Source: a bacterium (GTDB taxonomy: Bacteria > Bacillota > Clostridia > TANB77 > RGIG9151). From it: 64,000 bases of DNA. Location: assembly GCA_963635575.1 (NCBI GenBank), contig CAVHFU010000002.1, positions 17,768 through 81,767 on the forward strand, read 5' to 3'. A program made the translations under genes and the position numbers. Below are positions 18,647 to 55,962 of this stretch, piece after piece (position 1 is the first letter of the stretch; every line of letters starts with the position of its first letter). The notes below the pieces were generated by a model. The model was not told the DNA's origin. It was given only the letters and a program-made list of their open reading frames with translations, and ran no database searches.

Positions 18647-18673
18647 TTAAGTATTTAAGATTTCTGCCGATAT
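18647..18673 (+). promoter_or_regulatory. sigmaD (sigma-28/FliA) promoter upstream of flgM
   Basis: TTAA - 15 nt - GCCGATAT: a perfect -10 match to the sigmaD consensus TAAA-N15-GCCGATAT. Confidence 0.55.
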
Positions 18674-18718
18674 ATTATTCACAAGGAGTAAAAGAGTTAT
18701 TTGAAAGAGGTGCTTAGG

Positions 18719-19006
18719 ATGAGAATTTCAGGAAATGTTTCAGCAGTAACAGGAATTTATACGAATGACAAAAAAATCTCTAAAGTAGAGAATGTTAATA
18801 AATTAAGTTTAGGGAAAGATGATATTAAAATTTCTAGTAAAGCTAAGGATTATACTACAGCTATGAATGCGTTAAAGGATGTTCCGGATGTAAGACAAGA
18901 TAGAGTTGATGAGATATCTGCTAAATTTGCAAAAAATGAATATAAAGTTTCCGGAGATGATATTGCTGATAAAATTCTAAACGGTGGTTTTGATGCATCA
19001 ATATAG
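18719..19006 (+). CDS. flgM: Anti-sigma-28 factor FlgM
   Basis: 96 aa; C-terminal ...RQDRVDEISAKFAKNEYKVSGDDIADKIL. Location after comFC, as in Bacillus. Confidence 0.65.
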   Translation: MRISGNVSAVTGIYTNDKKISKVENVNKLSLGKDDIKISSKAKDYTTAMNALKDVPDVRQDRVDEISAKFAKNEYKVSGDDIADKILNGGFDASI

Positions 19007-25734: not shown

Positions 25735-25856
25735 TTTAATATTTGACTTAGGAGCGACCGATAGGTCGCTCTATTTTTCTTTAAAAAAATGTATTTACAA
25801 GTAAAAAAATATGGTACAATACTCTAGGAAGGAATTCATTATGGAGGTATTGTGTT

Positions 25857-26702
25857 ATGTCTAAATTTGATAAAATGTATTTAGATTTATGTAATAAGAT
25901 ACTTACAGAAGGAACTTATGTTCAAAATAGAACCGGAATTTCTACATATAAATTACCACATCAGATTTTACAGTTTGATTTGGCTGAGGAGTTCCCAATT
26001 TTAACAACCAAACAAGTAGCTTTTAAACATGCGGTACTGGAAATGCTATGGATATATCAAGTACAAAGTAATGATGTTAGTTGGCTAAAAGATAGGGGAA
26101 TTAAGATTTGGAATGAGTGGGAAATAGGCGAAGACGGAACTTATATGGGAAAGAATTTCGGTAAAGAATGGGCCGGGACGATAGGAACAGCATATGGTTG
26201 GATAGTAAATAAGTATAAACTTACTCAAAACTTAATTAACACATTAAAAAATAATCCTACTGATAGAAGGATGATAATGTCTTTATGGCAAAATGAATTT
26301 TTACCTACGGCGGCTCTTCCTTCTTGTGTTTGGAATACACAGTGGGATGTTACTGATGGTAAACTTAATTGCTTACTTAATGTTCGCTCTAATGATGTTC
26401 CGTTAGGAATGCCTTTTAATGTAACACAATATGCCGTTTTAATTCACTTACTTGCACATGTTACAGGATTAAAACCTGGTATTTTTACATATGTAATTAA
26501 TAATGCACATATTTATGAAAATCAAATTGAAGGAATTAAGGAGCAAATGAAACGCTTAGATAATGCCTTGCCTGCTCCTAAACTTTGGATTAATGAGGAA
26601 ATAGATGATTTCTTTAAATTCGATAATTCAAAAGAGCTAAAAGATATAAAATTAATAAATTATGAGCATTTAGGAAAGATTTCTATGCCGGTGGCGGTAT
26701 AA
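25857..26702 (+). CDS. thyA: Thymidylate synthase
   Basis: ThyA family features, including the Cys nucleophile region ...AALPSC...; 281 aa; followed by folA. Confidence 0.85.
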
Positions 26703-26714
26703 AGGAGAAAAAAT

Positions 26715-27209
26715 ATGATTAATATTATTGCTGCAATTGGCAAAAATAATGAGCTGGGTAAAGATAATAGCTTGATTTGGAATATTCCTAAAGATTTAAA
26801 GTTCTTTAGAGAGAAGACTAAAAATTCTATTATAGTTATGGGAAGAAATACTTTTAATTCTTTGCCTAGGATTTTACCGGGTAGAAAGCATATTATTTTA
26901 TCAAGTACAAATAATTTTAATAAAGAGATAAATGATGATGTAACAGTTATAAATAATAAAGAGGATTTAATTAATTTATGTAAGAAAATTAGTGAAAATA
27001 ATGAGGTTTTTATTATTGGAGGAGCTTCATTATACAGTATGTTTATAGATATTGCAGATGTTTTGTATATAACACACATAGAAAAAGTTGAAGAAGCAGC
27101 CGATGTATATTTTCCTAAAATAGATGAAGCTAAGTGGAAGAAAAATATTTTAGCAAATGATGAAGATAATAATATAAAATTTTCTTGGGTAGAGTACACT
27201 AAAATTTAG
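26715..27209 (+). CDS. folA: Dihydrofolate reductase
   Basis: IIAAIGKNNELGKDNSLIWNIPKDLKFFREKT...VMGRNTF DHFR signature. Confidence 0.85.
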   Translation: MINIIAAIGKNNELGKDNSLIWNIPKDLKFFREKTKNSIIVMGRNTFNSLPRILPGRKHIILSSTNNFNKEINDDVTVINNKEDLINLCKKISENNEVFIIGGASLYSMFIDIADVLYITHIEKVEEAADVYFPKIDEAKWKKNILANDEDNNIKFSWVEYTKI

Positions 27210-27227: not shown

Positions 27228-28625
27228 ATGAAGAAAGTTGGTATTACCGAAACGATACTTCGTGACGGACATCAATCGCTTATTGCGACAAGAATGACTA
27301 CTGATGAGATGTTACCTGCATTAGAAAAGCTTGATGCTATTGGGTATAATGCATTAGAATGTTGGGGTGGTGCTACATTTGATGTATGTATGAGATTTCT
27401 AAAAGAGGACCCGTGGGTAAGACTTAGAAAGATTAGGGAAACAGTAAAAAATACGAAGCTACAAATGTTGCTTCGTGGTCAAAATTTACTTGGATACAAA
27501 AATTATTCGGATGATGTTGTTGAGTATTTCGTTAAAAAATCTATTTCAAACGGAATAGATATTATTAGAATATTTGATGCATTAAATGATTTTAGAAATA
27601 TTGAAACTGCAATAGAAGCATGTAAACATGAAGGCGGACACGCCCAGGCAACTATATGCTATACAACAAGTCCGGTTCACAGTATAGATGGATTTGTGGA
27701 AGATGCACGACGTTTATATAATATGGGTGCGGATTCTATATGTATTAAAGATATGGCTGGAATATTACTTCCGTATACTGCTTATGAGTTGGTTAAGAGG
27801 ATAAAAGAATATGTTAATTTACCTATTGAACTTCATACGCATTATACTGCAGGTACTGGTTCAATGACTTATCTAAAGGCTATTGAGGCGGGATGTGATA
27901 TAATAGATACAGCACTTTCTCCATTTGCGTTAGGTACTTCACAGCCTTCTACCGAAGCAATGGTAGCAACACTTAATGGAAATGAGTTTGATACAGGACT
28001 TGATTTATCTGCTTTTGCTGATGTTTCTAACTATTTTAATGGAATTAAAGAAAAATATATACAAAATGGAATGCTTGACTCTAAAGTTATGTCGGCAGAT
28101 TCAAATGTACTTATTTACCAAGTACCTGGTGGAATGCTTTCTAATTTAGTTTCACAGTTAAAACAACAAAATGCGATGGATAAGTTTAATGAGGCATTAG
28201 CAGAAGTGCCTAGAGTTCGTGAAGATATGGGGTTCCCTCCTCTAGTTACGCCTACAAGCCAAATTGTAGGTACGCAGGCTGTGTTAAATGTAATTATGGG
28301 TGAGAGATATAAGATGGTTACAAAAGAAACAAAAGGATTGGTAAGAGGAGAATACGGAAGAACTCCTGTACCTATTTCTGAGGAAATAGTGAAAAAAATT
28401 ATTGGTGATGAAACTGTTATTAGCTATAGACCTGCTAATCGAATACCGCCGGAACTTGATAAAATGCGTAAAGAAATGAATGAATATTTTGAGCAAGATG
28501 AAGATGTTTTGTCTTATGCATTATTTCCTAATATTGCATTAGATTTTTTTAAGCTAAGGCGTGCAGAAAAATATGGGATAGAATCAGAATTTACTGATTT
28601 TGAAAATAAAGTAACGATTATATAA
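27228..28625 (+). CDS. Pyruvate/oxaloacetate carboxyltransferase (HMGL-like, OadA/PycB/5S family) without a biotinyl domain
   Basis: ITETILRDGHQSL, HTHYTAGTG and further family motifs. 465 aa; ends before any AMKM biotin-attachment motif. Confidence 0.7.
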   Translation: MKKVGITETILRDGHQSLIATRMTTDEMLPALEKLDAIGYNALECWGGATFDVCMRFLKEDPWVRLRKIRETVKNTKLQMLLRGQNLLGYKNYSDDVVEYFVKKSISNGIDIIRIFDALNDFRNIETAIEACKHEGGHAQATICYTTSPVHSIDGFVEDARRLYNMGADSICIKDMAGILLPYTAYELVKRIKEYVNLPIELHTHYTAGTGSMTYLKAIEAGCDIIDTALSPFALGTSQPSTEAMVATLNGNEFDTGLDLSAFADVSNYFNGIKEKYIQNGMLDSKVMSADSNVLIYQVPGGMLSNLVSQLKQQNAMDKFNEALAEVPRVREDMGFPPLVTPTSQIVGTQAVLNVIMGERYKMVTKETKGLVRGEYGRTPVPISEEIVKKIIGDETVISYRPANRIPPELDKMRKEMNEYFEQDEDVLSYALFPNIALDFFKLRRAEKYGIESEFTDFENKVTII

Positions 28626-28639
28626 GAGGAGTTAAATTT

Positions 28640-30286
28640 ATGGGCAAGTTTTTTGGATTTAATGAAAATTATGTGGGATTATCTGATAATGAGGCGTGGC
28701 TTAGAGTTTACGACAAAGGTAAAAATTTAATGCCTATAAAAAACAAAAAAATTCAACACAAATATAATAATATGTTTAGAAAAAAGACTAAAGTTATAAG
28801 AAGTGGAATTTCAAAATCCGTAAAAACAGATTGCCTTGTTCCAGAGGATATAATTTTGGTTGAAAAAGGCGATTTTGTGCCTGTTGATGGCATTGTTTTA
28901 GAGGCAAACAATCTTTATATGGAAAATGATATTGGCTTTAGTTCTGCTAACATTGAAGTTGGAGAACAATATTATGATAAGGATAAGCCTGTTTACCAAG
29001 GGATGAAAGTAAAGTCTGGAAAGGGTTTAATTAGGGCGGAAAAGACAGGTACTGAGACTTTACTTGGAGAGCAGGTAAAAGAAATTGATTTATTTAACAA
29101 AAAGGAAAGTAAGACTGCGAAGAAGTTTCTCGTTTTTTCCGGAATATTAACAATTATACTATTTTTTATTGCTATTGGCATTCAATTCTTTAATTCTAAA
29201 GATTTCGGAATTGCTTTAAAATATGGTGTTATAATGCTTATTGCAGCTTTTCCGGTTAGTTTTTTAATTACAGTATTTATAAGAGTGTTTATGCAATTAG
29301 ATATTTTTAAGAAATTCGGGCTTGTATTAAAAAACAAAAAGTATTTATTTGATTTTAGGAAATTAGATATTATTTGCATAGATAAGAAATTTCTTATTCA
29401 AGATTTTACAAAGTACATTCAAGATATTTTTAATGCAGGAATTAGAGTTGCCGTTATTAGTGATACTTCTTTGGAGGATACATTAAAATCAGCAAATGAA
29501 GCCGGAATTGACACTAAAAATACGACATATTTTTCAGGTGATGAACTCGATAGAATGGGAAAAGACGAGTATGTAAAGGCTATATGTGAGGGAATAGTAT
29601 TTTATAATATAAGCCATAAGCAAAAAAGCAAAATTATAAAAACATTTGAGGAAGTAAAAATAAATGTGCTATGTGCTGGAGCCGGAATAGAAGATTTAGC
29701 AAGTATATGGGAAGCGTATATCGGACTTTCAAGCAATAGGACTAAAAGGAGTATAGATAGAGGATTGGCTGATTTGCTAATATCTGGGAATAATTTTTCT
29801 GCGGTATATAGGCTGGTAAAGAGCAGAATAGAATTTAGAAAGACAATTATTTCAAGTTTTAAGCTAAATGTTATTTTTCAGATTCCTTTGGCGTTTTTGA
29901 CTTTATTTGCTATTATAAGCAATATAAGTATTTTTAATTTTGCTTTTCATGTTCTAGTATTAGAGTTTATAATTATTCCGTTATTATTGATGTTTTCTGT
30001 TAGAGGCTACAACGAAAAAGAAATATTTGTTCCGTATGAAAACGAGCTAAAAATAAAGAGTATTGCTAAAATGATTGGCTCTGGCTTAATTATTTTAGCT
30101 ATTTTGACTGTGGGTTATGTTGGATTAAATGTTTTAATTGAGAATGAATTCATAAATGTAAGTATTATTGTTGTAATGTTAACACTGTTCTATTGGATAT
30201 GCAGTAAGTTAAATCAAAAGGTAGTTAAAAAAAACAAAGAAGTGAATAAAAAGGAAGTAAAAATAAAAGAACAAACCATAATTTAA
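28640..30286 (+). CDS. Degenerate P-type ATPase homologue (pseudo-pump: lacks TM1-2, N-domain and catalytic motifs)
   Basis: Cation_ATPase_N-like GLSDNEAWLRVYDKGKNLMP, actuator-like VPEDIILVEKGDFVPVDGIVLEANNLYMEND. TGES is replaced by SSAN, DKTGT by DKKFL, and GDGxND by GAGIED. Confidence 0.55.
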   Translation: MGKFFGFNENYVGLSDNEAWLRVYDKGKNLMPIKNKKIQHKYNNMFRKKTKVIRSGISKSVKTDCLVPEDIILVEKGDFVPVDGIVLEANNLYMENDIGFSSANIEVGEQYYDKDKPVYQGMKVKSGKGLIRAEKTGTETLLGEQVKEIDLFNKKESKTAKKFLVFSGILTIILFFIAIGIQFFNSKDFGIALKYGVIMLIAAFPVSFLITVFIRVFMQLDIFKKFGLVLKNKKYLFDFRKLDIICIDKKFLIQDFTKYIQDIFNAGIRVAVISDTSLEDTLKSANEAGIDTKNTTYFSGDELDRMGKDEYVKAICEGIVFYNISHKQKSKIIKTFEEVKINVLCAGAGIEDLASIWEAYIGLSSNRTKRSIDRGLADLLISGNNFSAVYRLVKSRIEFRKTIISSFKLNVIFQIPLAFLTLFAIISNISIFNFAFHVLVLEFIIIPLLLMFSVRGYNEKEIFVPYENELKIKSIAKMIGSGLIILAILTVGYVGLNVLIENEFINVSIIVVMLTLFYWICSKLNQKVVKKNKEVNKKEVKIKEQTII

Positions 30287-30310: not shown

Positions 30311-30667
30311 TTAATTTTTTATTTTTGGTCTGAATATTAATCCAACTAAGAAACTAAAGAAGATAGCAGCACCTACTCCGGCTGCAGTAGCTTTTATTCC
30401 GCCTGTGAATATTCCTAAGAAACCATAGGTTGAAACTTCTTTGAATACTCCTTTTACTAAGGAATAGCCGAATCCTGTGAGTGGCACGGTTGCACCTGCT
30501 CCGCCGAATTTTACAATTGGTTCGTATATACCTATTGCTGTTAGAATTACACCTGTAACGATGAAAGTCACTAAAATTCTTGCTGGTGTTAATTTTGTTT
30601 TGTCAATTAATATTTGTCCGATGGCGCATATTATGCCGCCGGTTATGAATGCAGTTAAATATGACAT
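30311..30667 (-). CDS. spoVAE: Stage V sporulation protein AE (SpoVAC/SpoVAEB family membrane protein)
   Basis: 118-aa Gly-rich polytopic protein. Third gene of the spoVAC-AD-AE arrangement. Confidence 0.65.
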   Translation of the reverse strand: MSYLTAFITGGIICAIGQILIDKTKLTPARILVTFIVTGVILTAIGIYEPIVKFGGAGATVPLTGFGYSLVKGVFKEVSTYGFLGIFTGGIKATAAGVGAAIFFSFLVGLIFRPKIKN

Positions 30668-30679
30668 TGTTATACCTCC

Positions 30680-31684
30680 TTAATTTTCTATTGAAATTGC
30701 GTGAGCTATTCCGGAAATTGATTCTCCTTGTTGAATTGCAGTTGTACTCATAAGTGCACCGGTTGCGACAAGAAGAATTCTGTTTAATTCTTTTTTCATT
30801 AATTTTTCATAGAGGTATCCGCAAAATACTGTTCCGCAACAAGCACATCCGCTACCACCCGAATGAGTGTCCTGTTGTGATTTGTCAAAAATTAAGATTC
30901 CACAATCATTGTATCTGGTTTTTATATTTATCCCTTGCTTGTAGAGCATATCTTTTACAATTTCGCCACCGATATGTCCTAAATCTCCAGTTACTATTAA
31001 ATCATAATAATTTGGGTCTCTGCCTGTTTCCGTTAAGTGTGAATATATCGTGTCTGCTGCTGCCGGAGCCATTGCCGCTCCCATATTATTTGCATCTTTT
31101 ATGCCCATATCTACGATTTTTCCGATTGTTACATTTGTTATTTTAGGTCCAATATTATCTGTTGATATAATTGCCGCTCCCGAGCCTGTTACTGTCCATT
31201 GAGATGTTGGCGGACGTTGGTTCCCTAGTTCTAGTGGGAATCTAAATTGTCTTTCTGCCGAGCAGAAATGACTAGAGGTTACAGCTAAAATATTGTTTGC
31301 GAATCCGCCATCAACTAGCATTGAACCCACAGCCATAGATTCTACCATTGTGGAACAGGCACCATATAATCCGATAAATGGTATTTCACTATCTCTTATT
31401 GCATACGACGATGAAATACATTGATTTAATAAGTCCCCGGCAAGGACATAATTAATGTCATCCGGAGTTTTTTGAGCTTTTTGTAAAACTTTGTTTATAG
31501 TTTCTTTTGCCAGTTTTGATTCTGTTTTCTCAAAGCTTTTTTCACCCCAGTACTCATCTTCTAAAATATAATCAAAGTATTTCTTAAGAGGACCTTCGCC
31601 TTCTTTTTTACCTACAATGGAGGCTGTTTGTATAATGTGTGGTGTACTGTTTAGCGAAACAGTACTTTTTCCCAGTCTTTTCAT
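30680..31684 (-). CDS. spoVAD: Stage V sporulation protein AD (thiolase-fold)
   Basis: 334 aa; ketoacyl-synthase-like fold (GLYGACSTM, CSAERQFRFP). Flanked by spoVAC and spoVAE. Confidence 0.8.
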   Translation of the reverse strand: MKRLGKSTVSLNSTPHIIQTASIVGKKEGEGPLKKYFDYILEDEYWGEKSFEKTESKLAKETINKVLQKAQKTPDDINYVLAGDLLNQCISSSYAIRDSEIPFIGLYGACSTMVESMAVGSMLVDGGFANNILAVTSSHFCSAERQFRFPLELGNQRPPTSQWTVTGSGAAIISTDNIGPKITNVTIGKIVDMGIKDANNMGAAMAPAAADTIYSHLTETGRDPNYYDLIVTGDLGHIGGEIVKDMLYKQGINIKTRYNDCGILIFDKSQQDTHSGGSGCACCGTVFCGYLYEKLMKKELNRILLVATGALMSTTAIQQGESISGIAHAISIEN

Positions 31685-31701: not shown

Positions 31702-32148
31702 TTATAGGTTAAATATAAAATAGAGAAAACCAACTACGATAGATGAAGAGATACCGTAAACAAGCACGGGACCTGCAACTGTGAACATTTTTGCACCGAG
31801 TCCCATTACAAGACCTTCAGATTTATATTCCATTGCCGGAGAGGCAATAGAATTTGCAAATCCGGTAATTGGAACTACCGAACCGGCTCCGGCACGTTTC
31901 CCAATTGCGTCATATAAGTCAAACGCGGTTAAAATTATAGCAATTAGTATAAGAAGTATAGAAGTAATTGCTGAGACTGTGTCTTTAGGTAATCCACGAG
32001 CTGTAAAAAAGTTAGTTATAAATTGACCTATTATACATATGATTCCTCCAACTACGAATGCCCAAACCATATTTTTTGCAAGTGGACTGTTTGGAGATTT
32101 TTTATCTACATACTTTGAATATTCGACTTGCGTAAATTGCTTATTCAT
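31702..32148 (-). CDS. spoVAC: Stage V sporulation protein AC
   Basis: 148 aa from MNKQF; the track ORF is longer. SpoVAC/AEB family. Confidence 0.65.
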   Translation of the reverse strand: MNKQFTQVEYSKYVDKKSPNSPLAKNMVWAFVVGGIICIIGQFITNFFTARGLPKDTVSAITSILLILIAIILTAFDLYDAIGKRAGAGSVVPITGFANSIASPAMEYKSEGLVMGLGAKMFTVAGPVLVYGISSSIVVGFLYFIFNL

Positions 32149-32167
32149 TTTTATAATCCTCACTTTC

Positions 32168-33550
32168 CTAAATTGTTAGTATTCCGTTTGGAGTGTTTAT
32201 TATTATTAAAATATCCTCTTCATTTCCTGTTTCTGCGTTTATATAAACAATAAAGTCTCTATCATTTACTTTACCTGTGAATTCATATACTAAAACTTCT
32301 GTTTTTACTTCTGTTGGAATTATTGCTAGTCCTGAACTTTTGGCATTTAGATCTTTATTTATTAGTTCTTTTGCTTGGGCTTCTGTAATTTTTGGAGTGG
32401 TTATGTCACGTTTATGATGTGAAAATAAATATCCTGCTGATTCAAAGCCTAATGTTTCTCCGCTATCTAGAGCGACAGATACTTTTACTAAGTCGGCATA
32501 TACGGTAACATTATCTTGTCTATACGCAAAGTTTATTGTTGCAATGTTATTTTGTTCTATATAATAAGTTGCTTCCATACTGTCAAGTCCGCGAGAAGAG
32601 AGAAAATCTTTAGCTTTTTGTTTTGCATCATCTATAGATAAGGTCTTATCTTTTACATCACGATTGTAGAGCATCCATATTACATGTCCGCCAACTTTTG
32701 AAATATCCATATTTGCTTCATTATCGTCAGTTAGTTTTGCAGTAATGCTATAACAAGGAATTTTTGAATTGTTTGAGTCGCTAATTGAAATTATTTCTTT
32801 TACTTTATTTTTTCCTAGGAAAGTTGTTGCTATATTTTTTGCTTCTTCGGCAGAAATAGGATTTCCGGTTATTCCTCTTGGCTCCATATTGGTTATATGA
32901 TCGGAAAAAGGTCCGTCATAAATAAGCCCGGGATAATCTTGAAATGTGTCAGAGACTTGTTCAAATATATTTGAATTATCTGTTTGATTGACTTGTTTAA
33001 ATGTTGATGAGCCTTTTTTCTTTATTTCGTTCCAATACATTCTACCTCCTCCGATTTGACCGGATAACTCAGACATACTGTTTTGAAGTTTTGTAGCATA
33101 GTTGGATAGGGATTTTATTTGAGATAGTTGCTCATCAGATAATGCTTTTTGCTCAATTGTTTGCATTGTAAGTGCATGGGAAAAATCACTTGTTTGGGAT
33201 AAAAATTTTGATGTTTGGGCGATTAGATTTTGCTCAATTGGAAGTTGTACTAAATTTGTTTTTGCTAAATTTGATTGACGCCATATTTCACTCATTGTTT
33301 TTGCCCCATGTACAGGGTCTTTACTTACTAATGCTTTGGCGAGTAATGTGTCTATATTTTCAACATAAGCGGCCAGTTCATAAAATGCATGGTTATAACC
33401 GTTTTCTAAAGCTTGTTTGTTATCGTTTCTTATTTTAAAAATGTAGCCGAGTAGAATAAGTATTATAAGAAAACTGGTTATTACAATAGTAAACATATGT
33501 CTGTCTCTTAATCTGTTTCTCCAGTCTTTTAATTTTTCAGTAAAATTCAT
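32168..33550 (-). CDS. ypeB: Germination protein YpeB (PepSY-domain)
   Basis: N-terminal TM, then ENGYNHAFYELAAYVENIDTLL...EIWRQSNLAKTNLVQLP..FLSQTSDFSH, collinear with Bacillus YpeB. PepSY-like C-terminal repeats. Confidence 0.65.
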   Translation of the reverse strand: MNFTEKLKDWRNRLRDRHMFTIVITSFLIILILLGYIFKIRNDNKQALENGYNHAFYELAAYVENIDTLLAKALVSKDPVHGAKTMSEIWRQSNLAKTNLVQLPIEQNLIAQTSKFLSQTSDFSHALTMQTIEQKALSDEQLSQIKSLSNYATKLQNSMSELSGQIGGGRMYWNEIKKKGSSTFKQVNQTDNSNIFEQVSDTFQDYPGLIYDGPFSDHITNMEPRGITGNPISAEEAKNIATTFLGKNKVKEIISISDSNNSKIPCYSITAKLTDDNEANMDISKVGGHVIWMLYNRDVKDKTLSIDDAKQKAKDFLSSRGLDSMEATYYIEQNNIATINFAYRQDNVTVYADLVKVSVALDSGETLGFESAGYLFSHHKRDITTPKITEAQAKELINKDLNAKSSGLAIIPTEVKTEVLVYEFTGKVNDRDFIVYINAETGNEEDILIIINTPNGILTI

Positions 33551-35340: not shown

Positions 35341-35427
35341 TGGTGCGCGAAACCGGAATCGAACCGGTACGGTATCGCTACCGCAGGATTTTAAGTCCTG
35401 TGCGTCTGCCTGTTCCGCCACTCGCGC
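35341..35427 (-). tRNA. tRNA-Leu (anticodon TAA), long variable arm, CCA encoded
   Basis: Reverse complement reads GCGCGAGTGGCGGAA...CTTAAAATC...extra arm...GGTTCGATTCCGGTTTCGCGCACCA. Confidence 0.85.
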
Positions 35428-35623
35428 ATGAACATATAATATCACATAGTCGTTTTGTTGTCAATTGGGAAAATAAAAAAAACAAAAAAATTATTGACAT
35501 TGGGAAAATAAAAAAACAAAAAAATGTGCCCAAATATAAATAGTTAACATTAATGTTGCTAGAATACAGTAATACAGTGAAAAAATGAAAATATAAAAAA
35601 ATAAAAAAAAAATTAAAAAAGTG

Positions 35624-44397: not shown

Positions 44398-45687
44398 TTA
44401 TCTATTCATTTCATATCTTGTACTTGGTCCATTTCCGATTTTGACTAAAACACCATTTTCAACTAATTTATTTAATATTGTTGAGGTGGTTGTCTTTTCT
44501 TTATTAATTAGTGTTTGAGCATTAATTCTTGTTATAGAGCCATTCTTTTCAATATATTTTACAATTATATCCATGTCACCCTTTCTATTGTTTTGTATAG
44601 TAACATTATTCAATGATATTTTAGGTAATCTTACAACAAATGATGACGGCAATACATTTATCTCAAAATTTAATTCAATCTTATTATAATATGATTTTAC
44701 TCTTCTTAATCCACTTCCTATTGCTTCTACCCTCTTTATTCTCATAAAAATAGATTGCAAGTAAGGATTTCTTGAAGTTGATAGACCTGCTAGTATATCA
44801 TCAATTGTTATGTTTCCATATAAAGATCCAAAACTAATAACTTCTATTCCGTCATTTTTATATAAATTAAGTATATTAGATGTTAATGTTCCATAATCTC
44901 TGTGTATAAGGGAATTTAGCACTATTTCTCTTAAAATAAAGTCTGGATATTCTTCAATATCTTCTCTAACGCTCGTGTTAATCAATCCATATGTTGCTGT
45001 ATTATTTTTTAAATAATCAATTATAGTGTCATAAATTTCCAAGACTGATCCTTTAAATTCTTTCCTATCTAAAAAATTATTCTTTTCATTTGATTGATAC
45101 ACAGCTAATTTGAATGTAAATGGATTTTGGTCAGAAAACAATAATCCTAAGTTTGTATATTTTTGATTTGCAGTAAAATGCAAATTTTCTTTTATATTAT
45201 TTTCACTTATATTAATATTATTTTCTTCTAAGGCTTTACTAATATAATCAAAAGTTAATTCCTGATTGCTTGAAATTGATGTTTCAAATGATAGACTACT
45301 ATTTTTTATTATCATTTGTTTCACTGTTTCTTCTGTTGCTGGGATCGAACATGAGCCAGTTCTTAAGTATGTCCCTTTTACAATTCCTTTTTCTTTAAGA
45401 TAGTAAATATCAATTCCTTTTGAAACTTTTATAATAATATATTCTTTATCTTCAATTTTTTCTGTATTTATCGAAATAAAAATTCTAGCATCTGGAGATA
45501 TATTTGTTCGTATGCCATTAGAAATCTTTTCTTCAATGTCCTTGCAATTATCCAGTCCTATTAAATTTCCATTATCATCATATCCAATATATATGGTCCC
45601 AGAATTTGTGTTCAAAAAAGCTATAATCTCTTTATATATTTTTTCTGTATAATTTTCTTTAAATTCTATTGATTCATTCTTATTCAT
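44398..45687 (-). CDS. AlbA_2 (Schlafen-like) + HATPase_c_4 domain protein (RecG-C-terminal-like putative regulator/defence ATPase)
   Basis: N-terminal ESIEFKENYTEKIYKEIIAFLNTNSGTIYIGYDDNG (AlbA_2). Central REIVLNSLIHRDY (HATPase_c_4). C-terminal wHTH. Start at second ATG with GGAGGT RBS. Confidence 0.6.
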   Translation of the reverse strand: MNKNESIEFKENYTEKIYKEIIAFLNTNSGTIYIGYDDNGNLIGLDNCKDIEEKISNGIRTNISPDARIFISINTEKIEDKEYIIIKVSKGIDIYYLKEKGIVKGTYLRTGSCSIPATEETVKQMIIKNSSLSFETSISSNQELTFDYISKALEENNINISENNIKENLHFTANQKYTNLGLLFSDQNPFTFKLAVYQSNEKNNFLDRKEFKGSVLEIYDTIIDYLKNNTATYGLINTSVREDIEEYPDFILREIVLNSLIHRDYGTLTSNILNLYKNDGIEVISFGSLYGNITIDDILAGLSTSRNPYLQSIFMRIKRVEAIGSGLRRVKSYYNKIELNFEINVLPSSFVVRLPKISLNNVTIQNNRKGDMDIIVKYIEKNGSITRINAQTLINKEKTTTSTILNKLVENGVLVKIGNGPSTRYEMNR

Positions 45688-45948
45688 GCTATTTACCTCC
45701 ATTTCATATCGTTCAATCGCTCAAAAATATCGTTCAACCGTTCAATCGTAGTATAACACATTTATTGTAAATTATACAGATATATTTAAAATATTGTAAC
45801 AAAAGAGATATTCGCGTAAATTGAAAAATTAATTTTCTCCCATTCTATATCTTCCATCCCAATGACTGTCAAATCCACCTAAAGTAGGGTAGAAACCAAA
45901 AAAATAAAACCTTACAAGCCGTACGCCTGTAAGGTTTTATCAAATCTT

Positions 45949-46025
<77 letters not shown>

Positions 46026-54737: not shown

Positions 54738-55565
54738 TTACCTTACTAATTCTAATAGAGGTTCAGACGAAACAGAAACTTTATTTTCAAAAATTTGCTC
54801 GATTGTATTTACTATTTTTTTATTGTAATTTTCGCTTTCAAAATGAAGAAACACTTTTTTTGGTGCAAGAGTAATTAGAGAACTTATTAATACATCTTCA
54901 TTATTTAGATTATTTTGTTCCTTAGTTTCGATAAACTCTTCAAAGCAACTTTCTGTAATATTTTTATTTCTTTCATTTAGTATTAAGTATTCACCATTTT
55001 CTTCAAATATAACGTGTAGTTTTGGACATCTGTTTTTTTGAGTTTCAACGAAAAACTTTAGCATATCTATAAATTCTTTGTATTCCTCTTGAAGTTTATA
55101 GTCTTCTACTACTTTTTGGATTAATTCAACTAACATTTTCTTATAATTTAGCAATCTAAACTGGACAAAACCAGAAAGATTTAAATAATTTTCTTCAGTT
55201 AAATATTCCAAAATATTTTGCTTTATTAAGAAACGCCTTTTTAGTAAAATTAACATTCTTAAAAAATCATTATCGTGATTCTTAATTAGTTTTATAGCGG
55301 TATTGAGAATATTAGATTTTTCAGAAGAATTGAAAAATGGATAATCAGAAAATATTAAATCTTTTAATAGGCGTTCTTCTTCAAAGTTAATAATATATTC
55401 TGTTAAAACTTCCGATACTTTTAGCTTTAAAAAAGATTCGTCATCTGAAAAGAAAATCAGTTTATTTTTATATGCTCTGCAAGAAAATTTTTCGCATCGT
55501 TCTTTTTTGGCAATGTCATGTATATAATTAAAATTGTTTTTAATATCAATAATAACCTTTTGCAT
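54738..55565 (-). CDS. ytxC: Sporulation protein YtxC-like
   Basis: 275 aa; YtxC-family pattern (…LSGFVQFRL…); sporulation gene neighbourhood. Confidence 0.55.
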   Translation of the reverse strand: MQKVIIDIKNNFNYIHDIAKKERCEKFSCRAYKNKLIFFSDDESFLKLKVSEVLTEYIINFEEERLLKDLIFSDYPFFNSSEKSNILNTAIKLIKNHDNDFLRMLILLKRRFLIKQNILEYLTEENYLNLSGFVQFRLLNYKKMLVELIQKVVEDYKLQEEYKEFIDMLKFFVETQKNRCPKLHVIFEENGEYLILNERNKNITESCFEEFIETKEQNNLNNEDVLISSLITLAPKKVFLHFESENYNKKIVNTIEQIFENKVSVSSEPLLELVR

Positions 55566-55962
55566 ATTGAACCCCCTGGAATTGGTACAATTTTTAACTT
55601 TAGTTTAAGTATGAATCAAAAGAATTCATATTATACTATGTTTAGAAATATATTAGTGTGAAACTAAAGATCCTCTAGCCTCAGCAACAAGTAAAAAGGC
55701 GATTATAAAAGCAGGTTAAGCTTTTTCAAGGAAGTTTATTTCTAAACACAAGTTACTTATCGGCATTTGTATAAAAAGCTTAAGCAAAAAATTATGACAA
55801 AAAAATCTTTTTTTTTTTATTAAATTATGTTTTTTGTTTACAAACGTGTTTTTTTTTATTACAATGAATGAGTATTGAATTATTGAAAAATATTGAGTTC
55901 TCTCAATGTTTATACTTTTAGAAAAAATAAAGAAAAATACATTAGAAGAGAGGAGCAAGAAA

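Follow-up and report, generated by a model that had tools for sequence, protein, structure and literature searches.

We have characterized an open reading frame (ORF) of 548 aa, labelled X, that lies on the forward strand at 28640..30286 (stop codon included) of a 64-kb stretch of clostridial DNA (the window, meaning the whole stretch analysed), and show that it is a relative of the P-type ATPases, with a homology far beyond chance. Few membrane machines are understood as well as the P-type ATPases, of which, to our knowledge, every described member carries the actuator (A), P and nucleotide-binding (N) domains together with helices M1-M6. X keeps the A domain and a P domain on six helices, M3-M8. 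The homology, the excisions, the motif states, the pattern of selection, the synteny and the promoter motif reported here were all computed. The balance of this evidence tilts towards X being a selected pseudo-pump that acts as a non-catalytic, membrane-anchored scaffold or regulator.

The ORF list contains X exactly as an earlier note on this DNA had called it, and the P-type ATPase origin proposed there was confirmed by Pfam, NCBIfam, phmmer searches of PDB sequences and Foldseek. The Pfam E1-E2_ATPase model (PF00122) matched residues 45-213 (E=4.4e-22; 78.9 bits, cut-off 28.1) and was the sole noteworthy Pfam match; PF13246 and PF00702 had no match on X, and the Hydrolase/HAD models were undetected on the P domain at E<=1. 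Thirteen NCBIfam P-type ATPase models matched X in two stretches, all far under their curated cut-offs; TIGR01494 (HAD-IC family P-type ATPase) did not reach its threshold (49.5 against 62.3 bits) and TIGR01522 gave E=4.9e-22. The top phmmer match was the Listeria Ca2+-ATPase LMCA1 (E=1.7e-17), in which residues 110-337 and 535-715 aligned with X residues 45-251 and 260-444; the gap between these blocks indicates that ~200 pump residues have no counterpart in X.

The missing parts were delimited by aligning X with full-length pumps. From the N-terminal 'GL..EA....G.N.L' segment to the A domain (q30-q50) the pumps have 77 residues and X has 20, and thus the M1-M2 hairpin (~57 aa) is absent; the 163-203 residues that the pumps carry from the phosphorylation site to the C-terminal half of the P domain are represented by ~7 in X, and thus the N domain (about 160-195 aa) is absent. 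These losses had been described in the earlier note as those of TM1-2 and most of the nucleotide-binding domain, and are borne out. M9-M10 (~57 C-terminal aa) are also gone. Together the three deletions explain the difference in size from ~832-aa pump relatives, and their boundaries coincide with domain and hairpin limits, the N-domain junction falling after F251. In the predicted topology, paired removal of hairpins leaves both termini and both soluble domains of X in the cytoplasm.

An AlphaFold2 (AF2) model of X, built on an alignment with 30 full-length pumps (alignment A2), had a mean predicted local distance difference test score (pLDDT) of 82.6 and a predicted template modelling score (pTM) of 0.75. 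It contains two N-terminal helices, an A-domain barrel (strands 49-135), a Rossmann-type P domain and helices at residues 159-186, 189-225 (kinked at P205), 386-426, 431-453, 472-499 and 503-524. All top Foldseek matches of the model in the PDB were P-type ATPases (LMCA1, E=2.8e-22; LMCA1, SERCA and SPCA1 together about 1e-22 to 1e-20), with query-normalised TM-scores of 0.64-0.72 for E2-type states versus 0.51-0.59 for E1. The model indicates that X is compatible with the pump fold and is not independent proof of it. The order of A domain, P-domain core and helices, which the note had read as retained, is recognizable in the alignments and in the model.

The LMCA1 match and alignment A2 also showed the motif readings of the note to be exact. 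TGES is SSAN in X, in a loop that is variable or deleted across the family and has pLDDT <50; DKTGT is DKKFL, with only the Asp retained; and GDGVND is GAGIED, a form also seen in two assemblies made independently within the species cluster, with G[DASN]GIED in relatives. TGD has become SDT (VIS274DT) and DPxR is also lost. In M4 the motif 'IPEEFP' reads 'FPVSF', the cation-binding Glu of PEGL/PEEF being replaced by Val, and in M6 'ELIIDP' reads 'EFIIIP', with Ile at the Asp800 position. Six of the seven features used to define a functional P-type ATPase, a whole-protein score above a family cut-off among them, are missing from X, which keeps the A-domain/E1-E2_ATPase profile match. Because X is without the N domain, TGES, the DKTGT and TGD loops and the acidic ligands of M4 and M6, it should be unable to run an ATP-driven transport cycle. 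We infer from these absences that X cannot pump, in keeping with the earlier description of a non-pumping pump derivative that retains the fold.

The further claim that every catalytic motif has been lost holds at the level of motifs and fails at the level of residues. X retains D248 (the phospho-Asp), S274 (Thr625 position), K329 (Lys684 position) and D352 (Asp707 position), all of which are invariant in the nine closest orthologues and align with invariant columns of real pumps. Of the 14 family members, 12 have the phospho-Asp, all 14 a Ser or Thr, 13 the Lys and 13 the last Asp, and the set is complete in 12, including X of the window. At the Mg2+-ligand position (Asp703 equivalent) the window has Ala and the family as a whole A/D/S/N/Y/L; two residues after the phospho-Asp, 12/14 members have K/R instead of Thr; and F251 is kept in 14/14, placing an invariant bulky Phe where the loop has Gly, so that the loop reads D-x-[KR]-F-[LI]. 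Compared with the four motifs of HAD phosphatases, X has the first Asp, S274, K329 and D352, with Lys as second and Leu as fifth residue of motif I and Ala in place of the first motif IV Asp. Two members have lost core residues, yet their genes are intact: L019 (Asp to Glu, Asp707 equivalent to Ser, Asp703 equivalent to Tyr) and L020 (Asp to Tyr, Lys to Asn, Asp703 equivalent to Leu). Thus, a HAD-type site does not appear to be required, and the retained Asp/Ser/Lys/Asp network probably stabilizes the P-domain fold through salt bridges and hydrogen bonds. A biotinylation mimic based on the invariant Q-G-M-[KR]-V of the A domain, which resembles the 'MKM' of biotin carriers, was considered and rejected because the Lys is Arg in L010 and L006 and the stretch is the canonical pump motif (S/Y)GT.V..G.

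Among characterized proteins X is closest in design to the P2-type Ca2+ pumps (Listeria LMCA1, SERCA, SPCA1/PMR1; bacterial proteins of ~830 aa that are annotated as Ca2+-ATPase), with which it shares the A-domain barrel, the Rossmann core of the P domain and the M3-M8 bundle, and with which the M4 Pro, the phospho-Asp, the P-domain Lys and the last hinge Asp align by column. Unlike these pumps, it has no M1-M2, N domain or M9-M10, carries hydrophobic residues for the M4 Glu and M6 Asp, and has a membrane domain that is its least conserved part. Capless (C0) HAD phosphatases and receiver domains combine a Rossmann-like fold with a four-position site and no cap, motif I being DxDxT. X resembles them by its Asp, Ser/Thr, Lys and Asp and its lack of a cap, but differs in its D-x-[KR]-F-[LI] loop, in the unconserved first Asp of motif IV and in that the domain sits within a pump-like membrane protein. 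The fold without catalytic motifs, the purifying selection and the probable scaffold or regulatory role are features that X shares with pseudoenzymes in general (review PMC10211241).

Family extent and selection

A first homology search returned nine short-form clusters (527-600 aa; 37-100% identity to X), followed by full-length pumps at <=28% identity over ~40% of X. When 1.84 billion cluster representatives were scanned exhaustively with a hidden Markov model (HMM), the full-length short forms were confined to six clusters (P0006, P0112-P0116; E=5e-271 to 9e-63), with two fragments in addition; ordinary pumps followed from E=3e-45, matching in two stretches. Fourteen distinct orthologous X genes (loci with L numbers, and the window) were recovered with their DNA, at identities down to 23%, and the short forms are monophyletic in a tree rooted on full-length pumps. 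The best-scoring full-length pump comes from a Gram-negative organism. No family member bears a name in any source searched, an exact look-up of protein P0001 gave no match on record, and PADLOC anti-phage defence models did not match X, P0115 or P0116. The literature searched for FUPA families and for P-type ATPases that lack the N domain or have become pseudoenzymes, the coverage of which is incomplete, held no description of the X architecture.

Three other proteins, P0155 (692 aa; L102, L103), P0151 (699 aa) and P0196 (679 aa), resemble X in lacking an N domain and giving one continuous match to the X profile, but differ in keeping M1-M2 and M9-M10 and in their genomic contexts, which are unrelated to that of X. 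Their scores place them outside the X clade. This position indicates that loss of the N domain has occurred independently and more than once. P0155 retains DKTGT, TGD, GDGIND, TGE and PEEL and was found on four contigs, including one of the NCBI metagenome-assembled genome (MAG) GCA_017461235.1, beside a divergent operon with an extracytoplasmic function (ECF) sigma factor. A pump with intact motifs and no ATP-binding domain is puzzling in itself.

The tails of X relatives reach ~80 aa and end in [DE]-[IM]-x3-4-[IMLV]-[IL]. We observed that these Lys/Glu-rich tails (20-80 aa; L010, L015, L017-L020 and the window) carry the end motif in 13/14 members, the exception being L004, whose protein ends right behind M8; the motif could be a docking or autoinhibitory peptide.

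Selection on X was estimated from the ratio of nonsynonymous to synonymous substitution rates (dN/dS) with a Nei-Gojobori implementation on unsaturated pairs, synonymous sites being saturated between most pairs. Whole-gene values for X were 0.12-0.20, versus about 0.03-0.056 for the neighbouring carboxyltransferase: 0.165 at dS=0.28 (carboxyltransferase about 0.03), 0.195 at dS=0.07 (about 0.056) and 0.14 at dS=0.90 (about 0.03). X is the fastest-evolving gene of its neighbourhood; in L010 SpoVAEb is 90% identical and X 37%, and in L020 the figures are 68% for ArgS, 77% for SpoVAD and 26% for X. All 14 genes nevertheless keep an open frame (527-621 aa), at a genomic GC content of ~31%. The frameshifts or stops that the earlier note had named as the mark of a decaying pseudogene are thus absent from the orthologues, and its view of X as a maintained rather than a dead gene is upheld.

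Constraint is distributed unevenly along the protein, as seen from invariance among the nine closest orthologues and from regional dN/dS for pairs with usable dS. The N-terminal segment (residues 1-46) is the most conserved part, with 48% of positions invariant, followed by the A domain (residues 47-150; 34%), and dN/dS is 0.05-0.07 across these 150 residues. The P domain is 16-17% invariant (dN/dS 0.06-0.15), M3-M4 3% (0.12-0.29), M5-M6 10% and M7-M8 6% (0.15-0.27 for M5-M8). The ion-binding helices of working pumps are among their most conserved parts. The order of conservation in X is therefore the reverse, the head being constrained and the membrane helices relaxed, as would be expected if transport had been lost and the cytosolic head carried the function.

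X is restricted to its clade and has been lost at least once within it. L022, whose SpoVAEb is 95% identical to that of its close relative L010 and which shares the gene order of L010, is without X, and no remnant was found there, only the 78 nt adjoining dnaG matching L010. The place of X in L022 (9379-9833) holds a small minus-strand ORF (~85 aa) that is Cys/His/Trp-rich, unrelated to X and higher in G+C than its surroundings.

Genomic neighbourhood and promoters

X stands tail-to-tail with spoVAEb-spoVAD-spoVAC in all loci for which the downstream flank is readable, down to 23% identity, and tblastn across the loci showed the spoVA genes to be the only neighbours kept in all family members. 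The outer flanks change, with oadA, dnaG or argS on one side and ypeB-sleB or CBM53-amidase-SpoIIP on the other. The gap between X and spoVAEb ranges from a 4-nt overlap of the stop codons (L019, L020) through 20 nt (L010), 24 nt (window) and 47 nt (L017, L018) to 261 nt (L004), and small genes are inserted in L002/3 and L009. The insertion consists of barnase-like ribonuclease and barstar genes in L002 (5567-6176) and L003 (3690-4299), and of three small ORFs in L009 (5864-6889). X has no homology to SpoVA proteins, and with convergent orientation and a terminator between the genes adjacency is all that is conserved. As a control we took 80 other spoVAD loci (61-82% identity), 63 of which extend at least 1.5 kb beyond spoVAEb; in none of these 63 does that flanking region encode a P-type ATPase relative, whether short or full-length. 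The in-situ decay of a full-length Ca2+ pump beside spoVA was rejected on account of this result and of the Gram-negative source of the best-scoring full-length pump.

Upstream of X in the window lies an OadA-type carboxyltransferase without a biotinyl domain, as the earlier note had stated (465 aa; NF008985, 804 bits versus a cut-off of 718). The gap between the two genes is 14 nt rather than the 15 nt given in that note, and the tight junction on which it had based translational coupling is real, with no terminator between the genes. A thyA-folA-oadA-X transcription unit is predicted between an upstream terminator and the hairpin behind X (Table 1), and the carboxyltransferase and X are probably co-transcribed in this genome. 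Conservation of the pairing, which the note had suggested checking, was not seen family-wide. Among 12 distinct loci with an informative upstream flank, oadA lies directly upstream of X in nine, with gaps of 11-33 nt in eight. It abuts X in the window, L007, L001, L008, L002/3 and L009 (11-14 nt), and in L004 and L018, and in L019 it is also upstream, but a terminator-like hairpin and a sigma-D-type promoter separate it from X. There is no oadA upstream in L010 (divergent dnaG-sigA), L017 (SLH-domain gene) or L020/21 (argS, 244-nt gap); the 174 nt upstream of X in L015/16 are non-coding, and the flank of L006 is too short to judge the junction. In the tree rooted on full-length pumps the basal clade (L017 and L020) and part of the second clade are without the fusion, indicating that the tight oadA-X junction is derived and arose at least twice. 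A genuine oadB (OAD_beta, E=1.4e-152) precedes oadA-X in L004, the only locus in which oadB is adjacent. No OadB or biotin-carrier gene was found in the 64-kb window or in the related loci in which it was sought, and no OAD Pfam domain matched X, which is not OAD_beta or OAD_gamma by sequence. The oadA-X pairing is real in the window genome but is weak evidence for a common function.

X has an upstream region of its own in six loci, all of which carry T[TA]AA-N15/16-G[CA]CGATA[TAG] 29-49 nt before the start codon of X, with the core form TAAA-N15/16-GCCGATAT. Exact GCCGATA was observed five times in these 1249 nt versus 0.034 expected, with the variant GACGATAT in L006. The motif was calibrated with the flgM promoter of the window; flgM is a classic sigma-28-dependent gene. 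The flagellin gene of the window has TTAA-N15-TACGATAA. GCCGATA occurs twice in the whole window, before flgM and upstream of a YtxC-like ORF (Table 1); the latter occurrence may be due to chance or may mark another sigma-D target outside the flagellar genes. The motif of the X relatives equals the published SigD consensus, TAAA-N13-16-GCCGATAW (PMC3865298). Sigma-F, sigma-G, sigma-E and sigma-K promoter patterns were not matched upstream of X. The motif occurs to either side of the deepest split and is therefore ancestral to the X family, and we infer that expression of X in these relatives depends on SigD. The eight loci in which oadA abuts X, including the window, have no sigma-D motif within 500 nt upstream of X.

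In L010 the intergenic region between dnaG and X contains a masked run of 100 N (9816-9915), which follows a strong sigma-A-like promoter (TTGCAT-N17-TACAAT) and a Shine-Dalgarno (SD)-like sequence.

Possible functions of X

X arose from a P2-type (Ca2+-ATPase-like) ancestor, from which three topology-preserving excisions took M1-M2, the N domain and M9-M10, leaving the A domain and a capless P domain on a six-helix anchor. We propose that the remaining protein is non-enzymatic, most likely a membrane-anchored scaffold or regulator whose cytosolic head holds or senses a partner. Ancestrally it formed a separate sigma-D (FliA)-type transcription unit, probably expressed with late flagellar genes and fixed tail-to-tail against the operon of the SpoVAC-AD-AEb Ca-dipicolinate channel; in the window lineage the promoter was lost and X was captured behind the carboxyltransferase in the thyA-folA-oadA-X unit. 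The scaffold role is suggested by the concentration of selection on the head (N-terminal segment and A domain) and its relaxation on the membrane helices.

Several observations weigh against this explanation. The scaffold role is argued from elimination and from the pattern of selection, with no more than a candidate partner, and all family members come from metagenomes or MAGs and are known from sequence. The weight of the AF2 model is limited because the full-length pumps in its input alignment favour a pump-like fold. The regulatory part of the proposal derives from the relatives, X of the window having no sigma-D motif within 500 nt. The Asp/Ser/Lys/Asp set is complete in so many members that a residual function in binding a ligand or phosphate is conceivable for most of them, that of the window included, and the absence of X from L022 shows it to be dispensable.

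Of the other explanations, an accessory role for X in the SpoVA Ca-dipicolinate channel or in spore Ca2+ handling, as a structural partner of SpoVAC/AD/AEb, seems to us unlikely. The tail-to-tail adjacency is invariant while outer neighbours change, the pairing is specific to the X clade (0/63 control loci) and the ancestry of X lies among Ca2+-ATPase-like pumps. One of these, the Ca2+-ATPase YloB of Bacillaceae, is reported to be important for sporulation (PMC12999246) and belongs to the same superfamily branch, its link to spore Ca2+ and dipicolinate being comparable to the spoVA neighbourhood of X. However, YloB is a complete and active pump, whereas X is without the pumping machinery and linked to sporulation by position only, all its cation-binding carboxylates are gone, and the promoter of its relatives is of sigma-D type with no match to the sporulation sigma factors. 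The genes are convergent and hence not co-transcribed, others have been inserted between X and spoVAEb in L002/3 and L009, and L022 keeps spoVA without X. Moreover, tight packing (-4 to 47 nt in the window, L010, L017, L018, L019 and L020) leaves few neutral breakpoints, so that the adjacency could persist without any function. It is improbable that X instead serves as the membrane partner of the biotin-less OadA, as the earlier note had suggested, or as its anchor, in a modified complex resembling oxaloacetate decarboxylase. The frequent upstream position of oadA (9/12 loci), the oadB-oadA-X order of L004 and, in the window, the 14-nt gap with a strong SD and no terminator would all fit such a partnership, but oadA is missing upstream in L010, L017 and L020/21, which include the deepest branch, a hairpin and a sigma-D-type promoter divide the two genes in L019, and the fusion is derived, with at least two origins. 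OadA is 79-99% identical where X is 29-90%, and their dN/dS values are also far apart; these unequal rates give no sign of co-evolution, and neither OadB nor a biotin carrier is encoded in the window.

We consider it slightly more doubtful again that the capless P domain is a working HAD-type phospho-acceptor or phosphatase, a receiver-like conformational switch whose phosphate would come from a partner kinase or a small phosphodonor rather than through an N domain of its own. D248, S274, K329 and D352 are invariant in nine orthologues in which ~16% of P-domain positions are, and are kept together in 12/14 members; dN/dS of the P domain matches the low value of the A domain (0.06-0.07), and removal of the cap, the N domain, exposes the site. 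These points are offset by the variable Asp703 equivalent (Ala in the window), by the invariant bulky Phe at the Gly position of the D-x-[KR]-F-[LI] loop, by the loss of TGD and TGES, by the failure of Pfam Hydrolase/HAD models to detect the domain at E<=1, and by L019 and L020, which have lost two or three core residues and remain intact. We give little credence to an extension of this idea in which the exposed site (Asp248/Ser274/Lys329/Asp352) would bind phosphate or a phosphodonor and drive a movement of the A domain and M3-M6 that gates a membrane partner, possibly SpoVAC/AEb lying in the groove vacated by M1-M2. Less probable still is that the convergent layout itself is what is conserved, with sigma-D-driven transcripts of X running into spoVA, those of spoVA running into X, the resulting antisense interference separating the motility and sporulation programmes, and the protein being secondary. 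The convergence seen in all loci, the opposition of a sigma-D and a sporulation programme and the 4-nt overlap of stop codons in L019 and L020, which leaves no space for a terminator, are in its favour, but the window has a strong 19-bp bidirectional terminator, genes are inserted in L002/3 and L009, and purifying selection acts on the protein, most strongly in defined domains. Finally, the loss of catalytic motifs, the fast evolution of X and its absence from L022 might suggest a decaying pseudogene or an artefact of gene calling. This is scarcely credible given the 14 full-length frames (527-621 aa) kept open at ~31% GC with saturated synonymous sites, a dN/dS of 0.12-0.20 overall and about 0.06 in the head, the SD of X itself, the conserved promoters of its relatives, and excisions that respect domain and hairpin boundaries.

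If X is a pseudo-pump under selection, then A + P + M3-M8 marks the part of a pump that is stable alone and provides a natural minimal construct for structural work on coupling between the A domain, the P domain and the membrane. As far as the searched literature shows, P-type ATPases would join the enzyme classes that have yielded pseudoenzymes. The conserved head and variable membrane part point to a role in protein binding, and maybe to a new regulatory link in spore-forming, flagellated gut Clostridia; were a phosphate-driven gate to exist, it would be a signalling module evolved from a pump that links the motile (sigma-D) state to control of the spore channel. These implications are limited to a small uncultured clade in which X is dispensable in at least one lineage. 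Automatic annotation will label genes of this type as cation pumps, wrongly.

Feature positions and other observations

Table 1. Positions of X, its domains, neighbouring genes and regulatory elements in the window
Feature	Position	Strand	Basis
Sigma-D/FliA promoter TTAA-N15-GCCGATAT, 27 nt before flgM (18701-19006)	18647-18673	+	motif; Pfam FlgM E=6e-17
Terminator, start boundary of the predicted thyA-folA-oadA-X unit	25751-25772	+	terminator scan
thyA	25857-26702	+	ORF list; Pfam label from orthologous locus L001
folA	26715-27209	+	ORF list; Pfam label from orthologous locus L001
OadA-type carboxyltransferase, 465 aa, no biotinyl domain	27228..28625	+	NF008985, Pfam HMGL-like + PYC_OADA
Shine-Dalgarno AAGAGGAG of X, overlapping the carboxyltransferase TAA (28623-28625), 8 nt before ATG	28624..28631	+	sequence
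X, pseudo-P-type-ATPase ORF, 548 aa	28640..30286	+	ORF list, Pfam, AF2 model, Foldseek
X residues 1-46: Cation_ATPase_N remnant joined to M2-to-A linker, M1-M2 excision site	28640..28777	+	alignment to pumps
X residues 47-150: A-domain beta-barrel; SSAN at residues 101-104	28778..29089	+	profiles, alignments, AF2
X residues 159-225: helices M3 + M4; invariant P205 kink in M4	29114..29314	+	AF2, alignments
X residues 226-256: N-terminal P-domain half, C246-I-D248-K-K-F251-L; D248 codon 29381-29383	29315..29407	+	alignments
X residues 257-385: C-terminal P-domain half; VIS274DT, Q-K329, G-A348-G-I-E351-D352	29408..29794	+	alignments
X residues 386-524: helices M5, M6, M7, M8; no M9-M10	29795..30211	+	AF2, alignment
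X residues 525-548: Lys/Glu-rich cytosolic tail ending ...KEQTII	30212..30283	+	sequence; pLDDT <50 for 528-548
19-bp bidirectional terminator hairpin common to X and the convergent spoVA operon; 5' arm in last X codons	30264..30307	.	scan, both strands
spoVAEb	30311-30667	-	Pfam SpoVAC_SpoVAEB
spoVAD	30680-31684	-	label from orthologous locus L001
spoVAC	31702-32163	-	Pfam SpoVAC_SpoVAEB; label from L001
ypeB	32168-33550	-	label from L001
Second GCCGATA, TTAA-N15-GCCGATAA, 191 nt upstream of YtxC-like ORF 54738-55565 (-)	55757-55783	-	Pfam E=7e-58

Several further features of the window were recorded. A tRNA-Leu(TAA) gene lies at 35341-35427 (-), between pyrH and the flagellin gene, and after it a direct repeat of ~40 nt ('gggaaaataaaaaaacaaaaaaat...') occupies 35440-35530, upstream of the flagellin promoter. 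At 758-8483 (+) two adjacent genes encode proteins of 1664 aa and 904 aa with GH94 supersandwich/catalytic and glucoamylase-like domains, and resemble cellobiose/cellodextrin or cyclic beta-1,2-glucan phosphorylase-type enzymes. A gene for a Schlafen/AlbA_2 + HATPase_c_4 protein at 44398-45702 (-) lies in a segment of low GC (27.7%) where the GC skew is reversed, and adjoins tRNA-Met (45949-46025), and may be part of a small integrated island.

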